A DNA stretch of 64,000 nucleotides from Candidatus Moanibacter sp. (GTDB taxonomy: Bacteria > Verrucomicrobiota > Verrucomicrobiia > Opitutales > UBA2987): assembly GCA_965226025.1 (NCBI GenBank), contig CBDDCD010000003.1, forward strand, positions 985,227-1,049,226, written 5' to 3'. The position numbers and the translations under genes were made by a program. A model generated the notes under the pieces. The model worked only from the letters and a program-made list of their open reading frames with translations, searched no databases and had not been told where the DNA came from. Shown piece by piece: positions 1 to 52,879 of the stretch. Each line of letters begins with the position of its first letter. Within the stretch, counting starts at the first letter, position 1.

Positions 1-397
1 CGAATCGGTGGCTCATGGTCACCCCCATCTTGACGCCGCTCTTTCTCACCTTCTTGGCGATGCGTACCGATCCGGACATCGTATCCGCGATCGGCTTTTC
101 CGAGAGTATGTGCATCCCATGAGCGAGACTCACATCCACCACATTCTCATGGAATTCCGGGGGAACGACTACTGTGCAGAAATCAGCCGTGTTCTCATCG
201 AAGGCGCGGTCGATATCGGTGTAGCATCTGTCCTCGCTCAGTCCGAGATCCTCTCGAGCGTTAGAGAGGACTTCAGGGTTCAAATCCACTGCCGCGACGA
301 CTTCGATGAGTCCGTCTTCTATATTGGGCGGCAGGATCCGGCTGGTCCAGGCTTTACCCCGACCGCCGGTGCCTACTTGGATTACTTTGTATGGCAT
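1..397 (-). CDS. Gfo/Idh/MocA-family NAD(P)-dependent oxidoreductase, N-terminal part (gene runs off the left edge)
   Basis: Not in the ORF track because there is no stop in the window. Reverse complement from ATG at 397..395 reads MPYKVIQVGTGGRGKAWTSRILPP...VAAVDLNPEVL...VVVPPEFHENVVDVSLAHGMHILSEKPIADT. This shows a Rossmann GxGxxG and the family EKP motif. The + strand ORF 8..478 is its antisense shadow. Confidence 0.8.
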   Translation of the reverse strand, partial: MPYKVIQVGTGGRGKAWTSRILPPNIEDGLIEVVAAVDLNPEVLSNAREDLGLSEDRCYTDIDRAFDENTADFCTVVVPPEFHENVVDVSLAHGMHILSEKPIADTMSGSVRIAKKVRKSGVKMGVTMSHRF

Positions 398-465
398 AGG
401 TATCTGTCGGAATATCACATTCCACTGCTGCGCAAGAACCAGAACCCTTCCGACAGCCTCCTCGC
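397..465 (+). repeat. Dispersed inverted-repeat element, short form, copy 1
   Basis: TAGGTATCTGTCGGAATATCACATTCCACTGCTGCGCAAGAACCAGAACCCTTCCGACAGCCTCCTCGC. Termini TCTGTCGGA / TCCGACAG are reverse complements, and the core ..CTGCTGCGCAAG.. is shared with other copies. The left end touches the oxidoreductase start codon (395..397). Confidence 0.85.
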
Positions 466-548
466 AATAAGAAAATGAAAATGGTTTCTTTGGGAGTTGG
501 TCTCCACACTTCGTCGAATACACTTGGTCCTTACCGAACATAGTATTC

Positions 549-605
549 TACTAAGTGTGGGTGACTAAGCGTGGGGGACTAAGAGTAGCGACTAAGTGTG
601 CTGGG
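549..605. repeat. Four degenerate ~14-bp direct repeats, (G/T)ACTAAGnGTG...
   Basis: tactaagtgtgggt / gactaagcgtgggg / gactaagagtagc / gactaagtgtgctggg read directly. Lies between the end of the Sel1-TonB gene and the oxidoreductase start. Confidence 0.6.
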
Positions 606-639
606 TCCGAAGTAAACTACCCGAATCTGAATCTCACCA

Positions 640-1563
640 TCAGTTCAGTTTGAACGAAATCGGCTGAACTCGACGCACTTTGACGGGTTTTCCGTCTTTA
701 ATTCCTGGCTCGAATTTCCATTCCAGAACCGCCCTGATGGCCGGTTTAGTGAAATCTCGATGGGTTGCTTTTGGGGCCCTAGCATCGATTACGATACTTT
801 TCTCGTCTATTATAATGACCAGGCGGACCCATCCTTCGATGCTTTCACGTTTGAACTGATATGGGTATACAGGACGAGCGGCGTATATCCGTTTAGGGGC
901 TTTAAAGTTGCCGTCCATAGAATTCTTAGAGGGAAGCTCATGAGCCGTTGCGGTTTCGCCATCGCTTTCGGGTTTCGATCTTTCGAAGCATCCTTTTCGC
1001 ATCTCAGTCCAGCCTTCATGTTCATTTTCACGATACAATAATTCGAGGTCTTGCATGGATATTCCGATTCCCTGAGCTACAGCCTTGGAATACCATCGTC
1101 GTGCTTCCTCTAGGTTTTGGAATTCCGGTTGGCCGCATTCATAAAGTAGCGCGAGTCTGTTCTGCGCATCCTGGTTTCCAGATTCAGCCTCTGGCCGAGT
1201 ATACAATTCGGCCGCGAATTGATCCTCGATTAATTCGCCACCCCACCTAGGGTAGTACCTTCTACGAGAGTCATGACGACTAGGGTTTTCCTGTTCGGAC
1301 GCTTTCCCCAACAAAGAATCTGCATCGGTGTCGTCTTGGCCAACTCCCTTGCCAGATGAGTACCGTTCCCCAAGAGGGAATTGAGCATCGGCGTCTCCCT
1401 TCTCAGCGAGGTCGCGAATTTCCGGCAGCAGCTGAAAGGCTTCGATTGCCTTTCTTTCGGAGACACAGCCGATCGAGATGGCGAGGCAAATTGAAATGCT
1501 AAGAACCGAGAACCACGGTCCCAGATGTTGAATCGAGCAAATCCTCTTTTCAAATTGGGTCAA
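640..1563 (-). CDS. Sel1-repeat protein fused to a TonB C-terminal domain (signal/lipoprotein-like N-terminus)
   Basis: 307-aa ORF. N-terminal hydrophobic segment ...LAISIGC. Sel1-like repeats (AEKGDADAQFPLGERYSSGKGVGQD, GNQDAQNRLALLYECGQ...EEARRWYSKAVAQG). The last ~86 aa (RIYAARPVYPYQFKRESIEGWVRLVIIIDEK...KVRRVQPISFKLN) are about 2/3 identical by eye to the C-terminus of the TonB gene at 26958..27620. Confidence 0.75.
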   Translation of the reverse strand: MTQFEKRICSIQHLGPWFSVLSISICLAISIGCVSERKAIEAFQLLPEIRDLAEKGDADAQFPLGERYSSGKGVGQDDTDADSLLGKASEQENPSRHDSRRRYYPRWGGELIEDQFAAELYTRPEAESGNQDAQNRLALLYECGQPEFQNLEEARRWYSKAVAQGIGISMQDLELLYRENEHEGWTEMRKGCFERSKPESDGETATAHELPSKNSMDGNFKAPKRIYAARPVYPYQFKRESIEGWVRLVIIIDEKSIVIDARAPKATHRDFTKPAIRAVLEWKFEPGIKDGKPVKVRRVQPISFKLN

Positions 1564-1576
1564 GGCAGTGATACTA

Positions 1577-3415
1577 CTGGTAAACTAGAGGCTGTCCCAA
1601 ATCCGAGAGGATTTGGGTGGAAGCCTGATACCGATATCAATCTTCGTCACGTTATGTAGACCACGACATGCCTTCCGTCCTCGGTAGCTTACCTTTTATC
1701 CGTTATGCACCTTTCCAGCACCCTTCCTCTCGCTTTGAGTCGATAGTTCTCCCAAGGAAGCGCCTCTGACTCGATTCTTGGATCCCTATGCCGCCTGCGT
1801 TGCCTCTTTCTCATGTTCTTGCGCAAGTCTCTGCGCGATTTTCCATAGATTGTGGGACAGAACCGACCAGGCCACGCTAAGGTTACGGTTGTCAAAGCCT
1901 TTGCTGCGTATCTTGCCCCCGTGCCATCGGTTCTTGAGCACTCCGATCCGGCCTTCGGTGCTCCCTCGTCGTCGCTGCAACCGGACAAAGCGCGGCTCCT
2001 CCATCCGCTCCTTGAGCTCTTGTGGATTGCGGGGCGTAAGGGCGTCAAAAATCCCCTCTGCCTGGAGCCGCTTGCTGGCCGCCTTCGAGGCATAGCCCCG
2101 ATCCCCACTGATCGCTTCGATCTTCTCCTCTAAAGCGAAGCCCTTTTGCCTCTCCAGACTTTCCCAAAGCTGCTTCAATTCGCTCGGGGCCTGCCCCCCA
2201 TACAGTTTCCAGTCCAACAGATATCCCTCTGCGCTCTCGCATAAATAAAGGGTGTTGCCAAACTCCACCTCCCGATCTGCCTTGCCTCGCACGATGACGT
2301 CAATCTCAGGTTCGTAGGCGCTCAGGATCTTCTCCTCATTCTTCACCTGCCGCCCCCCTATGATCCGTTCGTGCGCCTGTTTCATGACCTGCGGTATCTG
2401 CTCTAACATACCATCCATTCGCTCGATGATTCGGCTCGCCTTCTTCTCGGTGTAATCGCTTTGCATCCACATAGCTTCCAATAAGTCACGGTGGCGAAGG
2501 GCATGGCCCTCAATCTTCTTGAGCAATAGCTTCATCCGCCGCAGGATCCCTTTACGCGCTTTGCCCGCCTCCCGGCGCCGACGCGCATGCGTCATCTCCA
2601 GGCACCGTTTGTTCATCTCCCGAGCCAATCCCTTTGCTCCCTGGGGCATGCGCTGTTTCATTCCCGCCTGCCGGATCAGACTGATCGCCTTGAGCAGCGT
2701 TGCTCCCACATCCTTGAGCAAGACCCAGTCCACGGGCCAGTGGATGTTCGCTTCCAGGCAAGTGGCGTCGATCAGGCATTCCCTCGTATCGATCGGCTTC
2801 TCTAATCCTGCCTCACCACAATGTTCAGCATTGCCCACCACCTCGGTCATCCTTGCATGCAGCTGTCTCAGATACGCTTCGTCGAAGAATTTCGAATCCC
2901 GTTCCAGACTGCTCTTCGATATTTTCCGGATCCCGTCTACCTCACGCACCCGGCAAAAATTAGCCAGAAGCTCACTGCGTGCCAACTCCTGCGACAGACA
3001 ACGAAAGGATATCCCTCCGAGTAAATGACGCACCACCTCCACCCGCAGCGCTTTTATCGCTCTTAGAGCGCGTCGCTCCCGATCCTTCCCTCCCGCTTCA
3101 TCCCATCCTTCCAAGGCTTTTACGATCGCCTCCCTTTCCAGCGAGGAGTCGATCAAAACCCGGTCAATCCGCTCCATTGTTTCCAGAAACACGGTGTAGT
3201 CTTTGCATCGAATGACTGGAGTTAGGGCTGGACGCAGGAAGCTTTGTACGGCAATATTTTTCATGAGAAGGGCGTGCTTTGTATTTGACTAACGCAAGCA
3301 TAAGCGCCCTTTTTCGCCGGATCGAGCTTTTTGCAGCTCTATCCGGCCTTTTTTTTGCCCATAACTCATTAAAAATCAATTGTTTCCACCACTGGGACGG
3401 GCTCTAAACTACCAG
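1577..3415 (-). mobile_element. IS5/IS1182-superfamily insertion sequence (~1.84 kb) with imperfect 23-bp terminal inverted repeats
   Basis: Left end CTGGTAAACTAGAGGCTGTCCCA (1577..1599). Reverse complement of right end (3393..3415) is CTGGTAGTTTAGAGCCCGTCCCA, 18/23 identical. Encloses a single DDE transposase ORF. No clear target-site duplication seen. Confidence 0.65.
1786..3264 (-). CDS. DDE transposase, IS4/IS5/IS1182-like
   Basis: 492-aa ORF with candidate catalytic triad contexts LIDATCLEANIHWPVD (D), AISGDRGYASK (D), RRRGSTEGRIGVLKNRW (E). Basic helical mid-region typical of these transposases. Confidence 0.85.
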   Translation of the reverse strand: MKNIAVQSFLRPALTPVIRCKDYTVFLETMERIDRVLIDSSLEREAIVKALEGWDEAGGKDRERRALRAIKALRVEVVRHLLGGISFRCLSQELARSELLANFCRVREVDGIRKISKSSLERDSKFFDEAYLRQLHARMTEVVGNAEHCGEAGLEKPIDTRECLIDATCLEANIHWPVDWVLLKDVGATLLKAISLIRQAGMKQRMPQGAKGLAREMNKRCLEMTHARRRREAGKARKGILRRMKLLLKKIEGHALRHRDLLEAMWMQSDYTEKKASRIIERMDGMLEQIPQVMKQAHERIIGGRQVKNEEKILSAYEPEIDVIVRGKADREVEFGNTLYLCESAEGYLLDWKLYGGQAPSELKQLWESLERQKGFALEEKIEAISGDRGYASKAASKRLQAEGIFDALTPRNPQELKERMEEPRFVRLQRRRGSTEGRIGVLKNRWHGGKIRSKGFDNRNLSVAWSVLSHNLWKIAQRLAQEHEKEATQAA

Positions 3416-3571
3416 CCTGTCGATTTCAAAAACCGGCAGGAGGTGGTCCGTGTCCTTTCCTCTTCGCCAACGCTACGCCGAGATGTACCGGGCGCGGAAC
3501 AGGCTTGATTCAATCTCAGAGGCTTCTGCCGTGTCCGGAGGCCCCGGCCCACCTTCATCGCTCATTCCAGG

Positions 3572-4549
3572 TTAGCGCCGGCCGCAAGCTATGTGGGCAA
3601 TCGGTTCGGGTGCCATCCAGGCGACAGTCCAATTAGCACCTCCATCCTCGCACAGGTAGAGATTGGTATCCACCGCCGCCCAAGCGCGACCCACCTGATC
3701 AAAGGCGATCTGGAAGGTGTCGATATTTCCCTCTGCAGAATTGGGAAAGCCATTGGTGACATGCGTCCAGGAACGGCCGCCGTCGGTTGACCGGCGGAGA
3801 GTGCCGCCGGAGTCGTCGCCCGGACCCCGGCTGACGGTAGCGAGTAGGCATTCCGGGTCTTCCGGATGAACAGCAATGGCACGGCCGTAGCGTTCCGGCA
3901 GACCGGCGGACCGATGGTTCCAAGTACGGCCTCGATCCCCACTCGTGTATACGGCGTTTGCGGTGTTGGCGAATACGAGATCATCGTCCGCCGGGCAGGT
4001 TGCGACCTGGTGGACATCCTCATGGAGGTCGGGTGTGACCATTTCCCAACCGATGCCTCCGTCCTCCGATCGAGCGATACTGCCGACGTGGATATCCGCA
4101 TAGACCATCCCATCGGAAGTTCGGGCGAAACTTCGGACTGACGCCGGGCCTCCCCACGGTGTGTACCATTCGGACCTCGCCTCGAGATTGGCAAAGGACT
4201 CGATTCGGGTAAGTCCGCTGACGCTGTACTCGAAGATATGGGGCCCCTCGGTTCCGATCAGAAAAGAGAGATCTGGACCATCTGATAGCATGAGGCACTC
4301 GATCGAGCCACTCTCCGTTTTCGCGATTGTTTTTCCGGTTTCGAGATCGATGATTTCTTCCTCGGTAGTAGCAACCGCGGTAGACTCGCCCTCCGCGATC
4401 GCGGTCGTGGCAACATCTTTCAGCATGAGGTCGGGCGAGTTCACCTCATCGTCCCATCGATAGACAGAGCTGGTTGTAGAAATGAGCATTGTTGCTTGAG
4501 TGACTGCCAGGTTCGAATTTAGGGACCATTGATTATCCCGTAAAGACAA
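3572..4549 (-). CDS. BNR/Asp-box repeat beta-propeller protein (sialidase/Ycf48-like fold family)
   Basis: 325-aa ORF with four SxDxGxxW Asp-boxes: SEDGGIGW, SGDRGRTW, STDGGRSW, CEDGGANW. Start uncertain (alternative Met 21 at 4489). Confidence 0.7.
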   Translation of the reverse strand: MSLRDNQWSLNSNLAVTQATMLISTTSSVYRWDDEVNSPDLMLKDVATTAIAEGESTAVATTEEEIIDLETGKTIAKTESGSIECLMLSDGPDLSFLIGTEGPHIFEYSVSGLTRIESFANLEARSEWYTPWGGPASVRSFARTSDGMVYADIHVGSIARSEDGGIGWEMVTPDLHEDVHQVATCPADDDLVFANTANAVYTSGDRGRTWNHRSAGLPERYGRAIAVHPEDPECLLATVSRGPGDDSGGTLRRSTDGGRSWTHVTNGFPNSAEGNIDTFQIAFDQVGRAWAAVDTNLYLCEDGGANWTVAWMAPEPIAHIACGRR

Positions 4550-4552
4550 ACT

Positions 4553-5408: not shown

Positions 5409-5456
5409 CTACTGCAACTAAAAGTGATCCGATCGGATCACTTTTAGTTGCAGTAG
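5409..5456. repeat. Perfect 48-bp palindrome
   Basis: CTACTGCAACTAAAAGTGATCCGA|TCGGATCACTTTTAGTTGCAGTAG. The two 24-nt arms are exact reverse complements with no spacer. Lies ~100 bp upstream of the sugar-binding protein gene. Confidence 0.9.
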
Positions 5457-6758: not shown

Positions 6759-6787
6759 CCCCGTGAGCTGGACAAGCACGCGAGCGA

Positions 6788-11099: not shown

Positions 11100-11145
11100 G
11101 AACGTCACATCCAGATGTGCGGCCGCACATCTGGATGTGACGTTC
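11100..11145. promoter_or_regulatory. Perfect 46-bp palindrome with nested 14-bp half-palindromes (candidate dual operator or 5' hairpin)
   Basis: GAACGTCACATCCAGATGTGCGG|CCGCACATCTGGATGTGACGTTC. Each arm itself contains CACATC-nn-GATGTG. Sits in the divergent region between the acyl-CoA synthetase and the TIM-barrel gene, ending 7 nt before the ATG at 11153. Confidence 0.6.
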
Positions 11146-12163: not shown

Positions 12164-12400
12164 TCGAGCCTAGGGGAGAATAGACCGGAAGATTCCTAGA
12201 GCGGCGTAGCCGCAACCAATGGACAAGGTTCGAGACGAGGTTCGGGACCCGTCGTCGCTGTTCTTTGCCGAGGCAGGCGAGGTTTGCTGCGCTGGATTCT
12301 GAGCGGATCGACTGTTAGTACCTTCCTGATTGAAGCCAAAAGGCAACTCCGCATTCCCTGGTAACCTTGTCTCGGCACTTGGTCGCCACATTATTACACC

Positions 12401-13645: not shown

Positions 13646-13730
13646 ATCTTCGAACCTGTGCTGAGCTTGAGATCGACGGATGAAGGAAGTAGGTCTCGAT
13701 AAAGTTCATACCGACAGATTCCTTTTATTT

Positions 13731-13797
13731 GGAGTCTGTCGGACGAGCTCTGTCGCCTGCAAAGCAATCGAACCTCAGAGTCCGACAGAATCCTAGG
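13731..13797 (-). repeat. Dispersed inverted-repeat element, short form (preceded by a partial extra end at about 13700..13724)
   Basis: GGAGTCTGTCGGACGAGCTCTGTCGCCTGCAAAGCAATCGAACCTCAGAGTCCGACAGAATCCTAGG. Its reverse complement aligns with the other copies. Ends 1 nt before the symporter ATG (13799). An additional AAAGTTCATACCGACAGATTCC half-end lies at 13701..13722. Confidence 0.85.
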
Positions 13798-15688: not shown

Positions 15689-15788
15689 GAATCTGTCGGA
15701 CTTTGAATATCGCAACATCGCGGAGGTTCGGATTCAACGGTGAAGGGTGCAAATCTGACCAAGTCCGTGCCGACAGATTCCTGCTAGG
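15685..15788 (+). repeat. Dispersed inverted-repeat element, long (~104 nt) form
   Basis: CTAGGAATCTGTCGGACTTTGAATATCGCAAC...GTGAAGGGTGCAAATCTGACCAAGTCCGTGCCGACAGATTCCTGCTAGG. Its TAG (15686..15688) is the symporter stop codon. Confidence 0.85.
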
Positions 15789-15950
15789 TTCAGAGTGTCG
15801 CCCGAAGTGTGACAGAGAGTGAGACAGTATGTCAGAAATGGCGCATCAGAGTCAGCCTCCATCTAGTCGATTCAGATTCTTAAGATTTTGGTCTCAAGCG
15901 ACTTGTGGGGGTTGTGTCTCACCTGGCACGCTCTCTGCTTAACGCTGGGC

Positions 15951-17912
15951 GTGAGTAAAGTAATCGGAATCGACCTGGGAACCACCAATTCGTGCATGGC
16001 CGTAATGGAAGGGGGGGAACCGGTCGTGATTCCCAATTCGGAAGGGGCGAGAACGACCCCTTCGGTGGTGGCGTTCGGAAAGAACGGCGAACGTCTCGTC
16101 GGGCAGTCTGCAAAGAGGCAGGCCGTCACTAATCCGGAGAATACCATTTTTTCGGCAAAGCGGTTGATTGGAAGAAAGCACGAAGAGGTGCAGGAGGAGG
16201 CGAAGCATCTCCCTTACAAGATCGGGAAAGGGAAGAATGGCGACGCCTGTATTGAATGTGAGGCCGAGGGCAAGACCGAACAATATACGCCGGAGCAGAT
16301 CTCGTCAATGATATTGGCGAAACTGAAGGCGGATGCGGAGACTTATCTGGGCGAAAAAGTGACCGAGGCCGTGATCACGGTTCCAGCCTATTTCAACGAC
16401 GCTCAGCGCCAGGCCACCAAAGACGCGGGCACCATTGCCGGTCTCGACGTCAAAAGGATCATCAATGAACCCACCGCCGCCTCGCTCGCCTATGGCTTGG
16501 ACAAAAAGAGCGATGAGGTAATCGCGGTCTACGATCTCGGCGGCGGCACCTACGATATTTCCATTCTCGAAATTGGTGACGGCGTCTTTGAAGTCAAAGC
16601 GACCCATGGGGATACCCATTTGGGGGGAGATAACTGGGATGCCACCATAATCGATTGGCTGGTCGAGGAATTTAAGGGTGACAGCGGGATCGATCTGAAG
16701 CAGGACCCGATGGCTCTGCAGCGTCTTAAAGAAGAGGCCGAAAAGGCCAAGATCGCCCTCTCTTCGACGCAGCAAACAGATATCAATCTGCCCTTTATCA
16801 CGGCCGATGCGAGCGGGCCTAAGCATCTAAATGTGAATCTGACTCGGGCAAAGCTGGAGCAACTCTGTGATCGTCTCTTTGAGCGTACTGTGGCTCCATT
16901 TCGAACCTGTCTCGAAGATGCGGAGTTGAGTGCGGGAGATATTCACGAGCTCGTCATGGTGGGAGGGATGACCCGCAGTCCGAAGATCCATGATGTCGCC
17001 AAAGGGCTGGCAGGAAAAGAACCTCACAAGGGAGTGAATCCCGACGAAGTGGTTGCGGTGGGCGCCGCCATTCAGGGTGCCGTCTTACAGGGCGACGTGG
17101 ACTCCGTCCTGCTTCTCGATGTCACGCCGCTCACCCTGAGCATTGAGACCGAAGGGGGCATCTCGAATCCTATGATCGAACGGAACACGACCATTCCAAC
17201 GAAAAAGGCGCAGATCTACTCCACCGCCTCGGACAGCCAACCCAGCGTGGACATTCGCATCCTCCAGGGAGAGCGTCCCATGGCCAGAGATAACAAGGTG
17301 CTGGGTAACTTTCGCCTCGACGGAATCTCGCCGGCTCCGCGGGGTGTGCCTCAGATCGAGGTGACCTATGATATTGACGCCAACGGAATACTTCAGGTCA
17401 CGGCCAAAGACATGGGGACGGGACGCGATCAAAAGATCTCCATTACAGGTTCATCGGGGTTGAGCCAGGAAGAGATTGACAAGATGCGCGAAGAGGCCGA
17501 ATCGCATGCCGCCGAAGACAGCAAGCTGAAGGGGGAAGTCGAGACTCGCAACAAACTGGACACCCTCATCTACCAGACCGAAAAGCTGATTAAAGAGAAC
17601 GGGGATAAGATTCCTGACGACAAAAAGAGCGCTATCGAGGAGTTGATCACGGAGGCCCGTAAAGCGGTCGAATCGAATAATGTTGAACAGATGAATGCGG
17701 CCTTGGAGAAACTCCAGAACGACAAGACGCTCCAGGAAGCGGTAACGGAGATGTATGCCCAGGCCCAGGCAGAGGCCGGCGCTCCACCCGAGGAGGCTGC
17801 ATCCGGTTCCACACCTCCTCCCGAAACGGCTACCGGCTCGAGTGGAAATGCAGCCGACGAAAGTGTGGTCGATGCCGATTTTGAAATGGTCGACGACGAG
17901 AAAGAGAAGTGA
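15951..17912 (+). CDS. dnaK: Molecular chaperone DnaK (Hsp70)
   Basis: ORF 15888..17912. The canonical N-terminus (M)[13 protein letters not shown] starts at GTG 15951. Also shows [20 protein letters not shown] and an acidic C-terminal tail. Confidence 0.95.
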
Positions 17913-17992
17913 ATTTATCTCGGAGGCGAGGCCGCTTGTGCGGTGAAACTCTCCCCGGGAAAGTGATTACCCAAATTGAACGAATCTCACAA

Positions 17993-18059
17993 GAAATCTG
18001 TCGGAGAAGCTTTGGCACTTGTAGAGCAATCGAATGACAAAGTTCGACAGACTCCTAGC
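17993..18059 (-). repeat. Dispersed inverted-repeat element, short form
   Basis: GAAATCTGTCGGAGAAGCTTTGGCACTTGTAGAGCAATCGAATGACAAAGTTCGACAGACTCCTAGC. Lies between dnaK and groES. Confidence 0.85.
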
Positions 18060-18096
18060 TTGAGATAGATTAACCCAAAAAAAGGAAGAAGCACGT

Positions 18097-18390
18097 ATGA
18101 AACCTAAGATCAAACCTCTCGGAGACCGCGTTTTGATATCGGCGGTCGAAGAAGATGAGCAAGTTAAGGGCGGAATCATCATTCCCGATACGGCCAAGGA
18201 AAAGCCTCAAGAAGCTGAGGTTATTGCTTTGGGAACGGGAAAGACAGATGACAATGGAAAGGTCATCAAATTCGCCGTAAAAGTTGGAGATCGAGTGATC
18301 GTCAGCAAGTATGGAGGTACCGAAGTCAAATTTGACGATCGGGAATACTCTCTGGTACGCGAGGACGATATCCTCGGAATAATCGGTTAA
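18097..18390 (+). CDS. groES: Co-chaperonin GroES
   Basis: 97-aa [13 protein letters not shown]...[22 protein letters not shown]...[14 protein letters not shown]. Confidence 0.95.
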
Positions 18391-20055
<1,665 letters not shown>

Positions 20056-20123: not shown

Positions 20124-20145
20124 GAGGACTAGTACAATGTCCCGT

Positions 20146-20958
20146 CTAAATATTCGGATATAGTTTCTTGAGTTTGATCCTTGCATCATCGGTCGTAAAG
20201 CGCGAATCAATCTTGGACTGGCGTCCGTTGCGATCCCTTTCCCATGCTGAGATTTCTCTGCACATGCTAGCCACGTCCGGAATTCTTCGGTCCAGGCACT
20301 GGCTATTCAGGGCACTGAGTTCGATCTCTGCGATATTGAGCCAACTACCGTGTTTGGGGGTATAATGGATCTCCAATCGCTCGGCCAATGCTCTGGCTTC
20401 GGGGGCCGCAAAGGTCTCGTAGAGAGAGGTAATTGAATGGGTATTGAGATTGTCCATCACAAGAATCACCTTTGCGGCCTCGGGATAGTGCACAATCAAC
20501 AGTTCCCTGATCTGCAGGGCCCAGTCTTTGCGGGTTCTTCTTGCGGTGACGCTGACGTGGCGCCAGCCTCCCAACGGTTCAACGAACAAGAAGATTTCAG
20601 CGACCCCCTTTCGGGCGTATTCATGGTCGTAGCGCATTGGCTTTCCGGGGGCCGTTGGAATAGGCACCTTGACCTCATCGACGAGCTGCTTGCACGATTC
20701 ATCCATGCATATTTGAGGATACATCGGATCGTAGGGAAGATGATATACCGCCAAGATGTCTTCCATGCACGCGACAAAAGCCGCACTCTGTTTTGGCGGA
20801 ATTTTCCAGCACTTCCTCAGGTGAGGCTTAAGTTCGTTGTTTTTAATGCCTTCTGCACTGATGACTTTGAGATCTGCTCGAAGATATCCAAACGCACCAG
20901 TTCTTCGGCCAGAAGCCGCACTGTCCATCGTTTGCGCCCCGGCGGTGGCGAGGAACAA
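20146..20958 (-). CDS. IS630 transposase OrfB (DDE catalytic part, expressed by -1 frameshift from OrfA)
   Basis: Contains ICMDESCKQ (D), VILVMDNLNTHS (D), HGSWLNIAEIE (E). A -1 slip on TTAAAAAC (complement of 20839..20846) joins ...VQKALK to NNELKPHLRKCWKIPP, the usual IS630 junction. Confidence 0.8.
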   Translation of the reverse strand: MFLATAGAQTMDSAASGRRTGAFGYLRADLKVISAEGIKNNELKPHLRKCWKIPPKQSAAFVACMEDILAVYHLPYDPMYPQICMDESCKQLVDEVKVPIPTAPGKPMRYDHEYARKGVAEIFLFVEPLGGWRHVSVTARRTRKDWALQIRELLIVHYPEAAKVILVMDNLNTHSITSLYETFAAPEARALAERLEIHYTPKHGSWLNIAEIELSALNSQCLDRRIPDVASMCREISAWERDRNGRQSKIDSRFTTDDARIKLKKLYPNI

Positions 20959-21278
20959 GCCAAGGCCAGCAACCTTGCCTCTTTTTCACCGTCGAAGATC
21001 GACGGCACCGGGGGCGTTTCCCGTTTCTTGCGGTCCAGCGCCGCTGTCATCCCGCCTTCGACGAAACGCCGTTTCGTATTCTCTACCGTGCGCGACGTTA
21101 CCCCGAGTGCTTGGGCAATGCGGGCACTCGTCCACGCTGGACCCTCATGACCACTGTCACACAACAGCAATGTTCGTGCGCGAACGAATTTCTTCGCTCC
21201 GACTCTGTCCCTCCTGGTCAACAATTCGAGCTCAAACCGTTCTTCGGCGATAAGCTCAATCCGATATCGCTTTGCCAT
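20817..21278 (-). CDS. IS630 transposase OrfA (HTH DNA-binding part)
   Basis: Starts MAKRYRIELIAEER at ATG 21278, preceded by AAGGAGG. Winged-helix / HTH-like sequence. Ends just after the A-run frameshift site. Confidence 0.8.
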   Translation of the reverse strand: MAKRYRIELIAEERFELELLTRRDRVGAKKFVRARTLLLCDSGHEGPAWTSARIAQALGVTSRTVENTKRRFVEGGMTAALDRKKRETPPVPSIFDGEKEARLLALACSSPPPGRKRWTVRLLAEELVRLDIFEQISKSSVQKALKTTNLSLT

Positions 21279-21401
21279 GGCAACCTCCTTTCCTAAGAGT
21301 TGCCAATAATACAATACGAATATTTAATGCGGACAATGTACTAGGTAAGAATCTATCGTTGAGGCTTGCGACAAGGGAGGGATCGGTAGTTTGGTTGCCC
21401 A

Positions 21402-23030: not shown

Positions 23031-23258
23031 CGGCCCGAACATTTCACAGATCTTCTACTACGATCCCGGCAGGCCGGGACGACCTCAGAGGGTCTTAACT
23101 CTCTTTCACCCGCTGCGCTGCGGAAAGGCGTTGGCACGTAGCGATTCCCGGCGTGCCGGGATCTCGCGACGAAGCAATGTCCGGGCCGCGGGTGGCCTTT
23201 TTACAGGACGAAACACTTGTCTTTCAGGTGGGTTCGCGGCGTGCTTCGACCGCAGTCC

Positions 23259-23420
23259 ACGATTGAGTGAACGACGGGAGTGGAGGCATCAGTAAGGTCG
23301 CCGAAGTCGTTCACTGAGTCGTGCCCTAAAGTCGATTCGGAGTTCTCGATTACAGTGGACGATTGGGTGGACGACGGGAGGAGATACCGGAAGGGATGTC
23401 GCTGTCGTTCACTGAATCGT
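23259..23420 (+). ncRNA. Candidate structured RNA: two tandem 17-bp hairpins exactly 100 nt apart
   Basis: Unit A pairs ACGATTGAGTGAACGAC (23259..23275) with GTCGTTCACTGAGTCGT (23306..23322). Unit B pairs ACGATTGGGTGGACGAC (23359..23375) with GTCGTTCACTGAATCGT (23404..23420). Arm differences are tolerated as G-U pairs only if the + strand is transcribed. Both loops start GGGAG. Confidence 0.3.
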
Positions 23421-23535
23421 GCACTGCGATCGGATTCGTCTAATCTCGGAAGATTCAGGAGAGTGTGTGAAATATCCGGTCTAAGGAATACGTTGACATG
23501 CAGAAAAGGGCAGTCCATTAATCCGTTTTTTGAGG

Positions 23536-23605
23536 CTAGGAGTCTGTCGGACTTTGTGAATCGATTTCTGTGCAAGAATCAGAGCTCGTCCGACAGACTC
23601 CGAGC
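23536..23605 (+). repeat. Dispersed inverted-repeat element, short form
   Basis: CTAGGAGTCTGTCGGACTTTGTGAATCGATTTCTGTGCAAGAATCAGAGCTCGTCCGACAGACTCCGAGC. Confidence 0.85.
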
Positions 23606-31687: not shown

Positions 31688-31786
31688 AGGAAACAGGGCG
31701 TGTCTAGATATTCCCGTACCGACTTCCAGGCTGTCGGCCTTGCGCCGGCAGGACGCTAAAGGCGTACTCGGATTTTTTCCTACAAT

Positions 31787-33103: not shown

Positions 33104-33106
33104 GGG

Positions 33107-33146
33107 GAATCGATTTACGAAGTTCAAAGTCCGACAGATTCCTAGG
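33107..33146 (-). repeat. Dispersed inverted-repeat element, truncated copy
   Basis: The minus strand reads CCTAGGAATCTGTCGGACTTTGAACTTCGTAAATCGATTCC. This is the left half only, and it ends 3 nt before the permease ATG. Confidence 0.75.
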
Positions 33147-35888: not shown

Positions 35889-35958
35889 CTATGAGTCTGT
35901 CGGAATTTGTAATTCGATTGCTGTGCAAGTGTAAGAGCAAGACCGATCGACTCCTAGC
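35889..35958 (+). repeat. Dispersed inverted-repeat element, short form
   Basis: CTATGAGTCTGTCGGAATTTGTAATTCGATTGCTGTGCAAGTGTAAGAGCAAGACCGATCGACTCCTAGC. Starts 1 nt from the mdh start codon (35885..35887). Confidence 0.85.
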
Positions 35959-36106
35959 AAAAAGAAAATGAAACTGGGTTTTGTGGAAAAGAGCATTTCT
36001 TACTCCTCAGGTGTCCGGTGTCAGTCTACAGAATCTCATTGCAAAATTTCACGATTGGATAGCTCGGTTTGTTTCAGTTTCCACGGGCACCACTTCCACC
36101 TCGGTT

Positions 36107-38227: not shown

Positions 38228-38397
38228 ACTGCGAAGAGGAGGGTCCAGAATCGGGAATTTTGAGTGGATAAAAGGGTGTGTTTTTTTATTCTCAGAGAAC
38301 GTATTATTTGGTTGACGGGATTTCTCCTAGCCAGTTCTTATCTCTCTGTTGGTTTCTCAACACTTCGTCGAATATTACCACACATAAAGGAGACTCA

Positions 38398-41401: not shown

Positions 41402-42409
41402 ATGAGAAGGGCGAGATTAAAGATACGGGGTCGGAGGGCGGTGTATCATTGTATATCGAGGACAGTAAATCGGGAGAAGCTGATGGATGGGGTAGCGAAG
41501 GAGGTGCTTAGGAAGCAGCTTTGGCAGATTGCCGATTTCTCGGGAGTGGAAGTGATCACCTACTGTCTGATGAGCAACCATTTCCATCTGCTGATAAGAG
41601 TTCCGGACAAGGAGAAAATTGAGGTGAAGGACGAGGAGTTGATGCGTCGGTACCGGGTTCTCTATCCAAGGAGGACTGAGCACGCACCAGCCGATCCTAG
41701 GGTATTGGAGGAAAAGCTGAAGGAGGGAGGAGAGGAAGGGGAGGCTATCAGAAAGCAGTTGTTGGCAAGAATGCATGATATTTCTGAGTTCATGAAGAGT
41801 CTGAAGCAGAGGTATACGATCTGGTATAACCGAACGCGAGGCCGGGTGGGGACGTTGTGGTCGGAGCGGTACAAGAGTGTGCTGGTTGAGGGGCGCGAGG
41901 CGGCGCTCCGAGTAACAGCGGCCTACATTGAACTGAACCCGGTTCGGGCTGGGTTGGTGGAGGATCCGAAAGAATATCGATGGAGCGGCTACGGGGAGGC
42001 GGTAGGGGGCAGTGAGCAGTCGCGAAGGGGGATCATCGATGCGGTGCAGGGGATTCAGATGGGGAGCTTGAGCTGGATCAGAGCGGCACGGGAGTATCGA
42101 ATACTGTTGTATTGTAAGGGCTCGGGCGTAAGGCCGGCATCGGAACGTGAGGGTAGCTTTCCGAGGGAGGAGTGGGTAGGAGTGATGGAAGCCGGGGGCA
42201 GGATTCCGGTGGCGGAAGCGCTGAGGTGTCGGGTGCGGTATTTCACGGATGGGGCAGTACTTGGATCCCAGACTTATGTTGAAGAGTTTTTCGAGGAGCA
42301 TCGAGATCAATTTGGAAAGAAGCGGAGGAGTGGCTCACGGAAAATGAAGGGGTGCGATTGGGAGGGATTGAGAGTGCTGAGAGATCTGAGGAGGGAAATT
42401 TTCACGTAG
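41402..42409 (+). CDS. REP-associated tyrosine transposase (RAYT, IS200-like HUH/Y1 family) with C-terminal extension
   Basis: 335-aa ORF. YHCISRTVN, HUH motif LMSNHFHLLI, catalytic-Tyr region AAYIELNPVRAGLVEDPKEYRWSGY. Confidence 0.8.
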   Translation: MRRARLKIRGRRAVYHCISRTVNREKLMDGVAKEVLRKQLWQIADFSGVEVITYCLMSNHFHLLIRVPDKEKIEVKDEELMRRYRVLYPRRTEHAPADPRVLEEKLKEGGEEGEAIRKQLLARMHDISEFMKSLKQRYTIWYNRTRGRVGTLWSERYKSVLVEGREAALRVTAAYIELNPVRAGLVEDPKEYRWSGYGEAVGGSEQSRRGIIDAVQGIQMGSLSWIRAAREYRILLYCKGSGVRPASEREGSFPREEWVGVMEAGGRIPVAEALRCRVRYFTDGAVLGSQTYVEEFFEEHRDQFGKKRRSGSRKMKGCDWEGLRVLRDLRREIFT

Positions 42410-43075: not shown

Positions 43076-43499
43076 TTGATATGGAGGAGCTGATCGATCG
43101 GGAAGAGTGCTTGAGCTCTGTTCATTTCCTAGGAGTTCCAGTCCAATAGATTACTCTGCTAGTCTTGTACAGATCTGATTCGGTCGAGCCGAAGTCTTTC
43201 ACGGTCATCGAAGAGTCGTCTCCCGGTTAACGAAATTGCGATTATCATGCCGAGGCCGACGATAAGCAGCTGGAGGGCCATGCGAAAGGAATTTACCAAT
43301 AGAGGCCTCGATCGAATGGCTGGGGATCCCGTCGAGCAAGACTTTGCCGGAATGTGGATCCACCAGAGGGGAATCTTTCTCAAACGCAGAGCGTTTGCAA
43401 TGACCGACGCGGAGCTTTCGAGGCAGAGGAAGACGAAGAGAAAGAGGAAGATCGATTCGTATCCGATGATACGATTCTATCTCCGGTCGATCGGTTGTC

Positions 43500-46993: not shown

Positions 46994-47053
46994 GAATTTC
47001 CCGGGTTGAATTTTGAGAAATTGGGGATTGCGCAGGAGGAGGAATTGGATTCA

Positions 47054-47935: not shown

Positions 47936-48001
47936 GAATCTGTCGGACTTTGACGTTCGATTGCTTCGCAAGTGACCGGGTTCGTCCGACAGCCTCCTAG
48001 C
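47932..48001 (+). repeat. Dispersed inverted-repeat element, short form
   Basis: TTAGGAATCTGTCGGACTTTGACGTTCGATTGCTTCGCAAGTGACCGGGTTCGTCCGACAGCCTCCTAGC. Its TAG (47933..47935) is the stop codon of the upstream gene. Confidence 0.9.
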
Positions 48002-48954: not shown

Positions 48955-49052
48955 GAATCTGTCGGAATGAACCTTATTGCAATTTAGGCCCTTCAACTTC
49001 CGATGTAACGTCCACGCCGGTTGCGAAGCTCAAAGTCCGACAGATTCCTAGG
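48951..49052 (-). repeat. Dispersed inverted-repeat element, long (~102 nt) form
   Basis: CTAGGAATCTGTCGGAATGAACC...GGTTGCGAAGCTCAAAGTCCGACAGATTCCTAGG. The reverse complement of its interior (TTTGAGCTTCGCAAC...TTGAAGGGCCTAAAT...) aligns with the long copy at 15685. Its TAG (48952..48954) is the aroE stop. Confidence 0.85.
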
Positions 49053-49062
49053 ATTCCTCTAA

Positions 49063-49560
49063 TCATTCAAGCATGGGCTGGAAATCATCATCGGGTCTAG
49101 GTTTAAGTTTGCCGTGCTGAATGATTCGTACGCAGGTGTTCCATCGTAGGATCGCTTCGTCGTTTTCTTCAGGACGAATCGCTTCCGCCTTTTCGTACCA
49201 TTCCATGGCCTGTCGCAGCCATTCGAAGGCGTCGAAGGAGGAGCCGGGCGAGGGTCTGTTGAGGTGAGTCCGGGCGCGCCGTTCGCAGACGATACCGCGA
49301 TAATAGCAGCGTTCGTATTGGTCGTCGAGACGATTGAGCAGCTGCTGTATTCTATTCTTACTAACGGTGTGTGCTTCACTGAATTGATCGGTGAGCGAGA
49401 GCAAGAGGGCGACCAGTGCTTCCTGGTTGTCGGGTTCGATTTCGAGGATATCCAGGCAAATGCTTTCAGCGGCACGGGATTCGTTGAGAAGCCGGTAGCG
49501 CATCGCTCTCTGGAGGGCGGCTGGAACGGCCTCTATGCGTAGGGGTTTGAGTTTAATCAT
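49063..49560 (-). CDS. Conserved-looking helical (TPR-like) hypothetical protein
   Basis: 165-aa ORF with no competing frame. No motif I can name. Confidence 0.45.
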   Translation of the reverse strand: MIKLKPLRIEAVPAALQRAMRYRLLNESRAAESICLDILEIEPDNQEALVALLLSLTDQFSEAHTVSKNRIQQLLNRLDDQYERCYYRGIVCERRARTHLNRPSPGSSFDAFEWLRQAMEWYEKAEAIRPEENDEAILRWNTCVRIIQHGKLKPRPDDDFQPMLE

Positions 49561-49629
49561 GGCCGCGACAGTTCGATTCTCTTTCTCAATCTAGAGTGGT
49601 GGCGTCGGAAGGCAAAGATCTTTTCCAAC

Positions 49630-50958
49630 CTAGAAGCGCTCCCAAAGATCTCGCGCTAATTCCCTCGCTCGCGCCGCGATTCGTTCTTCGTCGATCTCGA
49701 CGAGTTGGTGGTCCCGCATCAGGATACGTCCCTCTGCGATCGTGGTGCGAACGGAGGTGTGTGCGATTCCGAAGTAAACATGGCCATAGAACGTCTCCTC
49801 ATTGAAGGGAGTGGGTGGTGCGTAATCCAGAATCGCGAGATCGGCTTTGCATCCTGCGCCGATTTCCCCGATGCCTTCGTCCCAGTAGCGACTTGTGATC
49901 TTCCGGTTGTTGACGAAAAGCGCGTCCAATACTTCGTTGAAGGCGATGCTTGGGTTGCTCCCGCTAAGGTGCTGCGCCCAGAGAGCGACTCGGGCCTCCT
50001 CGAGCATATTGTTGGTCATGGAATCGGTCCCGAGGCCGTAGAGAATGCCCTTCTCACCTAACCGGACCAGGTCCGCCACTCCGACAGCGTTGTTCAAATT
50101 TGACTGGGGCAGATGGACGCCAATCGTATCGGTTTCGGCGAGAAGATCCATTTCTTTATCGTTCACATGAATGCAGTGGGCGCAGATCGTCTCTGGGCCG
50201 AGCACTCCGAATCGGTGCAATCTCTCAATCACCCGGATTCCGTGATTATCCATACTATGATTCTGGTCGGCCAGATCTTCCGCGCAGTGAATGTGAAACC
50301 CCGAATCGAGTTCCTTTCCCCTCTCTACCGCTTTTGTGAGTGTCTCGTCATTGATCGTAAATGCGGCATGGAGACCGAAGAGCGCCCTTACCCGGCTCGA
50401 TTCCATAGTTTTCTTTTCGGAGATAAACTCCGCATTTTCTTCGATGCCTTGATTGGCAATCTTGGTGCCTTCACGGTCGGTCACTTCGAAACAGAGAGAG
50501 GCCCTCAGCCCGGTCTCAATGACGGCCTTCTCTATTTCTCGAAGGGTGCCGCGCACATGCCCTTCGCTGGCATGGTGATCGATCAGAGTGGTGGTGCCGT
50601 GCTTGATCGCGTCGATGCAGCTCACCAAGGCGCTGTAATAGCAGTCTTCGGGGGTGAGCTGGCGATCCAGTCTCCACCAGAGATTTTCGAGGACTTCGAC
50701 AAAATTGCGCGAAGGAGGCACTTTGCCCAGACCACGGGAAAGAGCGCTGTAGAAGTGAGTATGGGCGTTGATGAAGCCGGGGAGAATCAACTGACCGGAT
50801 GCGTCGATTACGGTGTCCGCAGGGGTGGATTCCAAATCCACGGTGGGAGCTAAGCGACGGATGCTATCGCCCTCTATAAGAATCGAATGGTCGAGTAAGA
50901 GGCGATTGCGCTCCCCGAGAGTTGCAACGGTACCATGATTGATCAGGATGGTAGACAC
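49630..50958 (-). CDS. Amidohydrolase-superfamily aminohydrolase (SsnA / chlorohydrolase / nucleobase-deaminase-like)
   Basis: 442-aa ORF. LILPGFINAHTHFYSAL (HxH metal motif), GTTTLIDHHAS, GFHIHCAED, CAHCIHV, GLGTDS. Confidence 0.8.
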   Translation of the reverse strand: MSTILINHGTVATLGERNRLLLDHSILIEGDSIRRLAPTVDLESTPADTVIDASGQLILPGFINAHTHFYSALSRGLGKVPPSRNFVEVLENLWWRLDRQLTPEDCYYSALVSCIDAIKHGTTTLIDHHASEGHVRGTLREIEKAVIETGLRASLCFEVTDREGTKIANQGIEENAEFISEKKTMESSRVRALFGLHAAFTINDETLTKAVERGKELDSGFHIHCAEDLADQNHSMDNHGIRVIERLHRFGVLGPETICAHCIHVNDKEMDLLAETDTIGVHLPQSNLNNAVGVADLVRLGEKGILYGLGTDSMTNNMLEEARVALWAQHLSGSNPSIAFNEVLDALFVNNRKITSRYWDEGIGEIGAGCKADLAILDYAPPTPFNEETFYGHVYFGIAHTSVRTTIAEGRILMRDHQLVEIDEERIAARARELARDLWERF

Positions 50959-51330
50959 GGTTGAATCGAATCTAACGTCTCAAACGGCTTCACCAGGATG
51001 GAGGATCATCACTTCCCGGATTCTTGAACCAATGGAGTTGGTGAGCCTGAAACATACCTGGAACTGATCTTCTGCTACGACGACGGATCTCACCCCGTGC
51101 CAATCCCTCGTTAATCTTAGCTCGATTCGGACGTTTCAGTAAACTTGAAATCTGGGCAGATTGCGAGGTCCGAGATTGAACAGCTTTCATTCTTAATTGA
51201 AAAGTTTGATTGCCAAGCGTCTACCAATTGTGGTATGTAAACAATCGCAGGGAACCTTAGGGGATGGGAAGAGGAATCTGGCATTCACCCGTCCCTCGTC
51301 CGACGGCTACTTCATTAGATCGTTGAATCT

Positions 51331-52824
51331 ATGAAGTACGAATACTCACGAATGCCGGCGGCGAGTCGGCTGACAAAGGGCGTTCTATTTTCGTTTTGCA
51401 TAGGCGCCGCTTTTTTAAACGGGGGCCTGACTCCGGTGCTGGGGCAACAGCTGAATCTGGTTGTCCTGGCTGAGGTGTCGGGCGAAGTCTCGGTGGTGCA
51501 GGAAGACACCGGTGAAAGCTTTGCGGCGGAGAAAGGGCTCCAGATGTTTGAGGGCTACAGTGTGACCAGTGGAATCAACGGAAACGCGGTTCTTGTATTC
51601 TCGAATGGATCAACCGTGACGGTTCGCGAGAACACCCATCTTTTGATTTCGCAATTCTTCCAAGATCCCCATGAGGAGACTGAGCCGATCGACTCTTGGA
51701 CGCAGGAACCGGGGCGCTCGAATACGGTCCTGAATTTGGACTACGGGAAGATAGTTGGGAGCACGCGCAAGCTCTCGAGCCGCTCCATTTACAGGATCGA
51801 AACACCAGTGGGAATTGCTGGAATCCGCGGTACCGATTGGTTCATTGAAGTCGCAGTTATCACCGCTGATGTCCTGGACGGAGTCTTTGGCGTCACTCAG
51901 GGACTCATGGAGGTAACTCCTCTCGGCGCTCGTTTCACTACCATTGGAGGCAATCAACAGGTGATCGTAAATTTCAGGCAGAAGGACACGGGTATTCCCG
52001 AGGTTGATGTCACGGTCGAGAATGCCCTGACTACCGAGCAGAAGGAGAAAATCCTAGCCATCGTGCAGGCCGCCAATCGAGCCTTGAAGGAAGTGGCCAA
52101 GGAGATGCGCAAGGAGGAAGTCAAGTCCAGGAGAGACGATCGCCGAAGCACGGAAGAAGAGGAGGAAGAAGAAGAAGGCGAACCGAAAAAGATCGATGTG
52201 CAGAAGGAGGAAAAGCGGGATGAGCGGACGGAAGAACGGGATGCTCGTCGAGAAGGTGATGCTACGGCGCAGGAAGAGGGCGACAACAGGGGAGTGGAAG
52301 GTGACTCCGAAGGAGGGACTGAGCCCGTTGCAGCTTCATCCGATTCGCCGCAAGATACGGCGGGATCAGAGGGTGGAGATGATTCGGGCACAACCTCCGC
52401 CGAATCCCGTTTGGAGGCCGCCTTGGACGCCGAAAGTGAAACGCTTTCCAGCGATTCCAATCAGACGGAGACTTCGGGTGATACCTCCTCTGGCGATCAG
52501 ACGGGGGAATTGACGCGGGCCGAAATTGTCGCCGATCGGGTAGAGACCGTGATCGACGCTCAAGAACTGAGTCTTGTCGATGCCGATCGGGATAGACGGG
52601 AGACCATCGTGCGGCGGGCGCGCGAGCAGGAAGTGGGAACGACTGAGAGACTTCGAAGCGAACAGAGATCACAGGTCGGCGGTGCAGAGACGACTGTTAC
52701 TGTCGACCTGGGTCAGTTCGATCTGGAAAATGTCATCGACGCGGTCGGCGAACAGCTGCAAGACCCGACCGAGACGCTGGGCGCGAGAGCGGACGCCGAT
52801 TCGCGGCGGCCCAGGACGCCGTAG
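51331..52824 (+). CDS. FecR-domain protein with long hyper-acidic low-complexity C-terminal half
   Basis: 497-aa ORF. Signal-like N-terminus. FecR-like beta region (SGINGNAVLVFSNGSTVTVRENTHL...IETPVGIAGIRGTDWFIEV). Then EEEEEEEGEPKK... and D/E/S/T-rich sequence. Confidence 0.6.
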   Translation: MKYEYSRMPAASRLTKGVLFSFCIGAAFLNGGLTPVLGQQLNLVVLAEVSGEVSVVQEDTGESFAAEKGLQMFEGYSVTSGINGNAVLVFSNGSTVTVRENTHLLISQFFQDPHEETEPIDSWTQEPGRSNTVLNLDYGKIVGSTRKLSSRSIYRIETPVGIAGIRGTDWFIEVAVITADVLDGVFGVTQGLMEVTPLGARFTTIGGNQQVIVNFRQKDTGIPEVDVTVENALTTEQKEKILAIVQAANRALKEVAKEMRKEEVKSRRDDRRSTEEEEEEEEGEPKKIDVQKEEKRDERTEERDARREGDATAQEEGDNRGVEGDSEGGTEPVAASSDSPQDTAGSEGGDDSGTTSAESRLEAALDAESETLSSDSNQTETSGDTSSGDQTGELTRAEIVADRVETVIDAQELSLVDADRDRRETIVRRAREQEVGTTERLRSEQRSQVGGAETTVTVDLGQFDLENVIDAVGEQLQDPTETLGARADADSRRPRTP

Positions 52825-52879
52825 GAATCTGTCGGGTTTCGCTAATCGATTTCGCAGCGCTCTCGGATTATCTGGAAGC
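52821..52879 (+). repeat. Dispersed inverted-repeat element, short form with degenerate right end
   Basis: GTAGGAATCTGTCGGGTTTCGCTAATCGATTTCGCAGCGCTCTCGGATTATCTGGAAGC. Its TAG (52822..52824) is the stop codon of the FecR-domain gene. Confidence 0.7.

Follow-up and report, generated by a model that had tools for sequence, protein, structure and literature searches.

Short non-coding repeats at gene edges in Candidatus Moanibacter as probable miniature derivatives of IS1182-type insertion sequences

A 64,000-nucleotide stretch of DNA from Candidatus Moanibacter sp. (Verrucomicrobiota; assembly GCA_965226025.1, contig CBDDCD010000003.1, positions 985,227 to 1,049,226 of the forward strand), hereafter called the window, carries eleven copies of a short repeat with inverted ends. 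These copies are very probably non-coding derivatives of IS1182-type insertion sequences, i.e., MITEs (transposable elements of miniature size with inverted repeats), which form two sub-families of 61 nt and about 93 nt sharing one 13-nt terminal repeat, GARTCTGTCGGAC. An earlier reading of this DNA, made from the letters alone (the sequence-only reading), had described a dense family of palindromic-ended elements in two size classes and had offered three names for them, REPIN, MITE and Correia-like. The second name fits, as the copies are short and non-coding, have inverted ends and repeated tetranucleotide flanks, and have their ends in common with transposase-bearing elements. The third holds only in the generic sense of a bacterial MITE, the termini of Correia elements being unrelated to those of the window, and the first does not hold, as argued below.

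The reality of the family was assessed by searching the window for the 16-base terminus pattern CTAGGARTCTGTCGGA, with at most 3 mismatches and with 100 shuffles as background. This pattern matches 21 times, the shuffles giving a mean of 1.06 matches and a maximum of 4. A catalogue was built by site reading, by alignment and then by nhmmer scans with profile hidden Markov models (HMMs), one per size class. It comprises 11 copies in 64 kb, namely seven short (S1 to S7), three long (L1 to L3) and one truncated (T1), plus a few possible remnants. According to both site reading and nhmmer, every position given in the sequence-only reading holds a copy, and the two size classes that it proposed are real: the short cores measure exactly 61 nt (69 nt with their CTAG flanks) and the long cores 92-94 nt. 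Alignments also bear out the presence of copies in both orientations. The inverted termini had been estimated at about 17 nt, which is too long. The repeat shared by both sub-families is 13 nt and is found at both ends in 9 of the 11 copies; past these 13 nt the two ends of one copy diverge, and over 17 nt only 9-13 positions agree. When the flanks are included, the inverted arms reach up to 21-22 nt and are 95-100% complementary. Most copy ends are bordered by CTAG or by a one-base variant of it. Besides the termini, a central mini-palindrome TTGC...GCAA is conserved, and the mean column identity is 76%. As to coding capacity, the sole open reading frame (ORF) called over any copy is a 35-aa ORF over S5.

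The attribution to IS1182 rests on the ends. The exact 16-mer terminus occurs in more than 114 stretches of a species-representative genome collection, from Acidobacteriota, Spirochaetota, Verrucomicrobiota, Planctomycetota, Nitrospirota and many Proteobacteria, among others; the analyses of terminus pairs, CTAG and transposases given below cover 114 loci bearing it. In these loci, facing termini are often paired, either at 1.5-1.9 kb (11 pairs) or at 29-266 nt (about 40 pairs). The 530-aa protein encoded by the 1.7-kb element of locus L001 reaches 374 bits on NCBIfam NF033551, the IS1182 family transposase (cutoff 270), and also matches the Pfam domains DUF772, DDE_Tnp_1 and DDE_Tnp_1_6. Mutually related transposases, 38-64% identical, are encoded by 8 of the 11 long pairs; another of the 11, in locus L056, is a chance pairing around gatB. 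In all, tblastn places an IS1182-type transposase gene beside the terminus in 18 of the 114 loci, including two whose longest ORF was a high-GC antisense artefact. Despite a divergence of these transposases down to about 40% identity, the CTAG and the terminal 12-13 nt remain almost invariant, CTAG standing directly before 153 of the 185 termini in the loci. Furthermore, CTAGGAGC..GTC is the end of the annotated IS1182-family elements carried by plasmids of cultured Dietzia, Bradyrhizobium and Roseomonas, so that the terminus motif characterises this branch of the family. No IS1182 transposase was found by tblastn in the window. Since the copies have their ends in common with IS1182 elements and no such transposase accompanies them there, they are best described as non-autonomous derivatives. 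The sequence-only reading had recognised no named repeat family. This is correct for Rfam, whose covariance models give no match at gathering score over the whole window, and can be refined for the termini, which are those of IS1182-family insertion sequences.

Several searches aimed at a parent element or at earlier descriptions gave nothing. A scan of JGI metagenomes with the left end and core of the short form returned three chance hits and no right ends, hence neither a parent nor extra copies. A 530-aa transposase encoded beside the DUF4212 gene in a relative (L119) was considered as parent and discarded, as it is unrelated to the IS1182 transposases and the ends differ. In the literature, whose coverage was incomplete, the terminus sequence was met only in unrelated primers, without any description; likewise, no report on MITEs of this type in Verrucomicrobiota was found within the same incomplete coverage.

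Both forms are also present in related Verrucomicrobiota. A metagenome-assembled genome of Ca. Moanabacter contains a 61-nt element whose identity with the short copies of the window is 76-81% over 66-70 nt, as well as 92-nt elements aligned with the long form from one end to the other. In addition, a full-length element from Verrucomicrobiia (L053) has 16 nt, GAGTCTGTCGGACTTT, in common with the end of the short form. The G+C content of the window is 54-57%, and several ENA, NCBI and Logan metagenome assemblies contain its proteins without a single residue changed. For the cation/acetate symporter, the closest homologues with a named source are those of Puniceicoccaceae bacterium 5H (77% identity), Ruficoccus sp. 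ZRK36 (75%) and Cerasicoccus arenae (69%), which points to an uncultured host of the Opitutales/Puniceicoccaceae type within Verrucomicrobiota.

The small elements that carry the same terminus in other loci (L008-L114, from other phyla; e.g., L011, 101-258, and L032, 3474-3502) fall into discrete lengths, 61 and 92 nt being two of them. A 29-nt hairpin made of ends only is identical in three loci from Verrucomicrobiota. A class of 160-161 nt is very common in many Proteobacteria, Nitrospirota and others; its length is fixed and its internal sequence varies widely between phyla. Many of these small elements lie less than about 100 nt from the end of a contig, a position to be expected of multi-copy repeats, which break assemblies.

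The copies occupy the edges of genes. On a gene map made of gene calls on identical contigs and checked against start and stop codons, 88.4% of the window is coding; each of the 11 copies is located in the 11.6% that is not, or at its edges. By our own arithmetic, the chance of such a result under random placement is about 1e-10. Nine of the 11 copies are within 6 nt of a gene boundary, S3 and S4 being the only free-standing ones. The claim that copies never fall inside a credible coding sequence (CDS) holds only with reservations, since L1 overlaps the 3' end of the DUF4212 gene, four copies have a stop codon in their (C)TAG flank and S1 was placed inside a called CDS.

Four upstream genes have as their stop codon the TAG in the left CTAG-type flank of a copy. 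L2 (15689-15780, plus strand, 92-nt core, flanks CTAG / CTGC(TAG), E = 2.1e-25) provides in this way the stop of the symporter gene; the encoded protein falls 4 residues short of that of relatives and ends in DIDH* instead of DIDQSLGN* or DIEEALEH*. The stop codon of the Transglut_core2 gene belongs to the flank of S6 (47936-47996, plus strand, 61-nt core, flanks TTAG / CTAG, E = 9e-22), and that of the shikimate dehydrogenase gene to the flank of L3 (48955-49047, minus strand, 93-nt core, CTAG on both sides, E = 6.6e-25), whose arms including the flanks are 21 nt long and 100% complementary. S7 (52825-52885, plus strand, left flank GTAG, E = 2e-12) ends a FecR-like gene. It had been listed as a short copy at 52821-52879; its left terminus and core are indeed intact, whereas its right end is decayed.

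Four other copies are 0-6 nt from a start codon. S1 (400-460, plus strand, 61-nt core, flanks ATAG / CTCG, E = 1.3e-17) precedes by 2 nt, on the upstream side, the likely ATG (395-397, minus strand) of a gene for a GFO_IDH_MocA oxidoreductase. The gene caller put it inside a 408-aa CDS, whose start is probably wrong, since the Rossmann motif begins at the ATG located 2 nt from S1. S2 (13732-13792, minus strand, 61-nt core, flanks TTTG / CTAG, E = 1e-21) is 6 nt upstream of the symporter ATG, within the pair formed by the DUF4212 and symporter genes; 10 nt separate it from L1. S5 (35893-35953, plus strand, 61-nt core, flanks CTAT / CTAG, E = 5.7e-20) is 5 nt upstream of the ATG of an Ldh/Mdh gene on the minus strand. 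T1 (33104-33141, minus strand, right flank CTAG, E = 3.5e-6 and 4.4e-7 with the two HMMs) directly adjoins what was called as the start codon of a xanthine/uracil permease gene; it keeps one terminus and about 25 nt, the other terminus being missing. T1 corresponds to one of two copies that had been reported as truncated, at 33107-33146. The other, reported at about 13700-13724, is simply the right end of a complete long copy, L1 (13628-13721, plus strand, 94-nt core, flanks CCAG / CTTT, E = 3.7e-25). At its left end, L1 has 18 nt in common with the DUF4212 gene and encodes the last five codons (ESVGL) and the TGA stop of that gene.

Of the two free-standing copies, S3 (17994-18054, minus strand, 61-nt core, flanks CAAG / CTAG, E = 1.4e-20) is found between dnaK and groES, and S4 (23540-23600, plus strand, 61-nt core, flanks CTAG / CGAG, E = 4e-23) between a Na+/H+ antiporter gene and a DUF3450 gene. 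S4 is the best-preserved short copy, with 22-nt arms that are 95% complementary. A possible internally deleted remnant occupies 12174-12195, where 22 nt stand between two CTAGs; the match is weak, its right end CCGGAAGATTC resembling the terminus with 3 mismatches. Four other CTAG-adjacent stretches (43133-43158, 46994-47020, 31727-31745 and 43329-43407) faintly recall MITE ends or the long form; the last has an nhmmer E-value of 0.011, and all four may be decayed remnants.

S1 and S5, both directly upstream of oxidoreductase start codons, are followed on their right by about 30 nt that are alike (GCAAWAAGAAAATGAAA..., at 461-520 and 35954-36000). A 14-mer, CACTTCGTCGAATA, occurs exactly twice, in intergenic DNA, at 507-520 and 38361-38374; with up to 2 mismatches it is found 7 times against 0.34 expected.

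The tetranucleotide that borders the copies is itself rare. CTAG is four-fold scarce in the window, with 56 occurrences against 244 expected from base composition or 97 from a second-order estimate (GTAC and TATA are depleted too). None of the 27 intragenic CTAGs carries an element; the other 29 include 9 that flank one. Among stop codons TAG is the most frequent, 21 of the 49 genes ending in it.

We infer from these positions and ends how the copies could have arisen. An IS1182-type DDE transposase, encoded elsewhere in the genome or formerly present, would bind both termini, excise or copy the element and insert it at a palindromic CTAG, which would then border it on both sides. This would involve either a 4-bp duplication or a duplication of TA within CTAG, two outcomes between which the sequence cannot distinguish. 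Insertions within genes would be purged by selection. Conversely, insertion in a CTAG that contains a TAG stop would be nearly neutral, the duplication restoring the stop. Survivors would accumulate at gene boundaries, at stop codons or just upstream of starts, and would occasionally replace the last codons of a gene. Scarcity of CTAG, loss of intragenic insertions and restoration of stops would together explain why copies pile up at gene edges. The proposed duplication is consistent with the 4-bp duplications reported for members of the IS1182 family (PMC8027508, PMC3852290).

Comparison with other assemblies bears on the mobility of the copies. In strains of the same species, at 99.7-99.9% identity, every copy is common to all, and several other insertion sequences are polymorphic. 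The syntenic relative L120 (GCA_964542645.1), whose symporter is 87% identical in protein and whose genes are 72-80% identical in DNA, has no copy at all along a 22-kb syntenic stretch that takes in the positions of L1, S2, L2, S3 and S4. At the site of S3 it shows a single CTAA beside the conserved right flank CTTGAGATA; at the site of L2 its symporter gene ends in AAC TAG, i.e., in a CTAG. In another relative, L138, whose shikimate dehydrogenase is 75% identical to that of the window, a 61-nt copy lies exactly at the stop codon of the Transglut_core2 gene, as does S6 in the window; the L138 copy aligns better when inverted (45/61 identities versus 41/61). L138 also has decayed sequences resembling the short form at the stop codons of its Ala_racemase_N and shikimate dehydrogenase genes, where the window has a possible remnant and the well-preserved L3, respectively. 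These last two sites were considered as pairs of empty and filled sites and set aside: each "empty" partner holds a plausible decayed remnant, and the sites are consequently no proof of duplication. Taken together, the L138 sites indicate that the same CTAG stop codons were hit, or kept, repeatedly, and that the family is older than the split from L138. The perfect 21-nt arms of L3 suggest more recent activity.

Some points weigh against the derivation from IS1182 by transposition into CTAG. The window and about 10 kb of extra DNA from the same species contain no cognate IS1182 transposase. No clean pair of filled and empty sites is available from a close relative, as strains share all copies and the intergenic DNA of other species is too diverged, and the CTAG duplication is in this respect only deduced. 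CTAG is a palindrome and could just as well form the outer end of the inverted repeat itself. By their mean column identity the copies are old, and they may no longer be mobile. Finally, a purely selfish model leaves unexplained why the 61- and 92-nt cores are constant across genera.

This constancy could instead point to function. It might be supposed that the copies are primarily RNA or DNA elements under selection, such as terminators, mRNA-stabilising hairpins, translation modulators or protein-binding sites, and are transposon-derived only by origin. The core lengths and the mini-palindrome are indeed kept between genera, most copies adjoin a gene boundary, and all are fixed among strains. 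Moreover, individual copies fold into stable hairpins, with energies between -17 and -40 kcal/mol and z-scores between -1.5 and -5.7, as the sequence-only reading had anticipated. However, this pairing shows no covariation: the RNAalifold term is +0.69, a single pair has changes on both sides, and the consensus structure is paired in 89.8% of cells versus 88.6% in column-preserving shuffles, 86 of 500 of which reach the observed value. The pairing is thus no more than conserved inverted ends yield on their own; the hairpin is a by-product of these ends, and nothing points to a function at the RNA level. In a terminator scan, no copy was flagged as terminator-like and none is followed by a T tract. 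One promoter-like match (9/12) overlaps the right end of S3, promoter-like counts being at chance level. To this should be added the lack of Rfam matches, the occurrence of copies in either orientation relative to neighbouring genes, the decay or truncation of several of them and the absence of copies at the same sites in relatives. A primarily functional nature is therefore quite improbable.

A combined proposal, which is unlikely as well and which we put forward with great caution, is that both forms may be co-opted gene-boundary modules in this lineage, and that the IS1182 clade with GAGYCTGTCGGAC/CTAG ends spawns derivatives of quantised lengths (29, 61, 92 and 160-161 nt) across phyla under an undescribed structural constraint. 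The idea of co-option comes from the lengths and mini-palindrome kept between genera, the positions 0-6 nt from starts or stops, the fixation in strains and the reoccupation of stops. If it were true, the copies could serve as hairpin structures or as sites bound by proteins, with a role in setting translation initiation, in insulating genes from their neighbours or in protecting 3' ends.

A derivation from IS1182 also has to be compared with a movement of the copies by other transposases encoded in the window. An insertion sequence at 1588-3404 encodes a 492-aa DDE transposase (1786-3264) and has the inverted ends GAGGCTGTCCCA and GAGCCCGTCCCA. That this resident element, rather than a canonical IS1182 transposase, moves the MITEs is improbable, even if several features speak for it. 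It likewise occupies CTA(G)-type sites, and it is active, as in L126 and L127 a second copy (their positions 1-520) has inserted at the CTAG of 41697, inside a gene resembling those of REP-associated tyrosine transposases (RAYTs). By our own count, its ends agree with the MITE terminus at 8-9 of 13 positions, and they closely resemble the IS1182 terminus GAGCCCGTCCC from Roseomonas. Nevertheless, they differ at positions 10-11 (GG versus CC), while for IS1182 elements from other phyla the agreement with the MITE terminus is 12-13 of 13 positions. In the same way, the 492-aa protein is barely similar to the IS1182 transposases of the loci (BLASTP E = 0.059, no tblastn match) and has its best scores, 205 bits on NCBIfam ISNCY_1 and 125 bits on IS5_1, below the respective cutoffs. 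Judged on these similarities, it is a weaker candidate driver than a canonical IS1182 transposase.

The window also contains a 1.2-kb insertion sequence of the IS630 family (20133-21340), located between groEL and the Na+/H+ antiporter gene with CTAG on both sides; its 270-aa transposase scores 134 bits on NF033545. It is absent from the same-species assemblies L123-L125, which identifies it as a recent insertion and implies that a CTAG-targeting transposase exists in this genome. The MITE flanks would equally fit an arrangement C-TA-[element]-TA-G, as expected of IS630/Tc1-type MITEs that duplicate TA within CTAG. Yet the IS630 termini, (G)TACAATGTCC..., have nothing in common with GARTCTGTCGGAC, and MITE-type termini enclose IS1182 genes in the loci and an IS630 gene in none of them, so that movement by this element is very unlikely. 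Hardly any credit can likewise be given to the copies being REPINs or sequences like the repetitive extragenic palindromes (REPs), mobilised by the product of the RAYT-like gene (41402-42409). The latter is a 335-aa Y1 (IS200-like) transposase that matches Pfam Y1_Tnp and, below threshold, the REP-associated tyrosine transposase model (63.4 bits, cutoff 80). The elements are, admittedly, palindromic and mostly extragenic. On the other hand, this gene is flanked neither by copies nor by matching inverted repeats, the nearest copy being more than 5 kb away; the elements lack the GTAG/CGTC tag that defines REPs (PMC3733652), their termini reading CTAG-GARTCTGTCGGAC; they are bordered on both sides by CTAG, like a target duplication of DDE transposases; and in 18 loci the very same termini enclose genes for IS1182 DDE transposases. 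These are the grounds on which the name REPIN was dropped, the full-length relatives encoding a DDE and not a tyrosine transposase.

Other features of the window and of its strains deserve mention. Strain L126 is devoid of 146 nt inside the RAYT-like gene (41837-41982). Two perfect intergenic palindromes, of 48 nt (5409-5456) and 46 nt (11100-11145), are related neither to each other nor to the MITEs. Two tandem units of about 98-100 nt, each with its own inverted repeat (CAGTCCACGATTGAGTGAACGAC / GTCGTTCACTGAGTCGTGC), occupy 23246-23440, a region in which strain L125 is about 100 nt shorter. At about 57039-57049, L127 has an extra 2.8 kb (its positions 15720-18525) that interrupts an FG-GAP gene and comprises an IS1595-family transposase gene and two other ORFs.

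With regard to annotation, such copies mislead gene callers, as illustrated by the spurious ORF over S5 and the probably wrong start over S1, and they alter real gene ends, the symporter being shorter by 4 residues than that of relatives and the tail of the DUF4212 protein being encoded by an element. The copies document very small (61-nt) IS1182-type MITEs in Verrucomicrobiota, and one 13-nt terminus with CTAG is common to transposase-bearing and miniature elements across many phyla. Targeting of CTAG combined with regeneration of the TAG stop would account for the exact placement at stop codons. None of this changes the accepted view of how such elements work.

Among known systems, the closest are the IS1182-family elements (NF033551) themselves. 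The (CTAG)GAGYCTGTCGGA terminus of the window copies is identical to that of transposase-encoding elements of 1.5-1.9 kb from many phyla. IS1182 elements are, however, coding and 1.3-1.9 kb long, whereas the copies measure 61-94 nt and have no coding capacity. ISPsy36, a member of this family from Pseudomonas syringae pv. actinidiae, is reported to target a palindromic tetranucleotide with a 4-bp duplication (PMC8027508); its target is GGCC, that of the window copies would be CTAG. Non-autonomous IS1182-family derivatives are already known as the ISMac2 MITEs of Methanosarcina acetivorans, one of whose two families shows a 4-bp direct repeat (PMC3852290). As far as descriptions can be compared, the ISMac2 MITEs are archaeal, of 160-169 bp, with inverted repeats of 25-26 bp (PMC3852290), whereas the copies described here are bacterial, of 61 or about 93 nt, with inverted repeats of 13 nt.

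Like Correia/NEMIS, RUP, ERIC, Nezha and Chunjie, the window copies are short, abundant, mostly intergenic and capable of forming hairpins from their inverted-repeat ends; these classical bacterial MITEs are sometimes co-transcribed with genes (PMC3184786, PMC10969869). They differ by their size of about 100-435 bp (PMC10969869) and by termini and a presumed transposase family that are unrelated to those of the window copies. Chunjie, from Geobacter, was weighed in particular because loci from Geobacteraceae carry the terminus, and was rejected, as it has 21-bp inverted repeats and 9-bp duplications. REPs are 20-40-bp palindromes with a GTAG (or CGTC) tag at one end (PMC3733652). The resemblance to REPs and REPINs is limited to palindromic extragenic repeats and to the presence of a RAYT-like gene in the window; the absence of the tag, the CTAG flanks and full-length relatives with a DDE transposase set the copies apart. 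The size of MITEs is usually quoted as 70-300 bp (PMC3733652), a range below which the 61-nt core falls. The copies are thus an ordinary type of element and not a new one, bacterial MITEs by kind and IS1182 by family; what is distinctive here is the 61-nt core, the exact placement at stop and start codons and the breadth of phyla in which one terminus is found.

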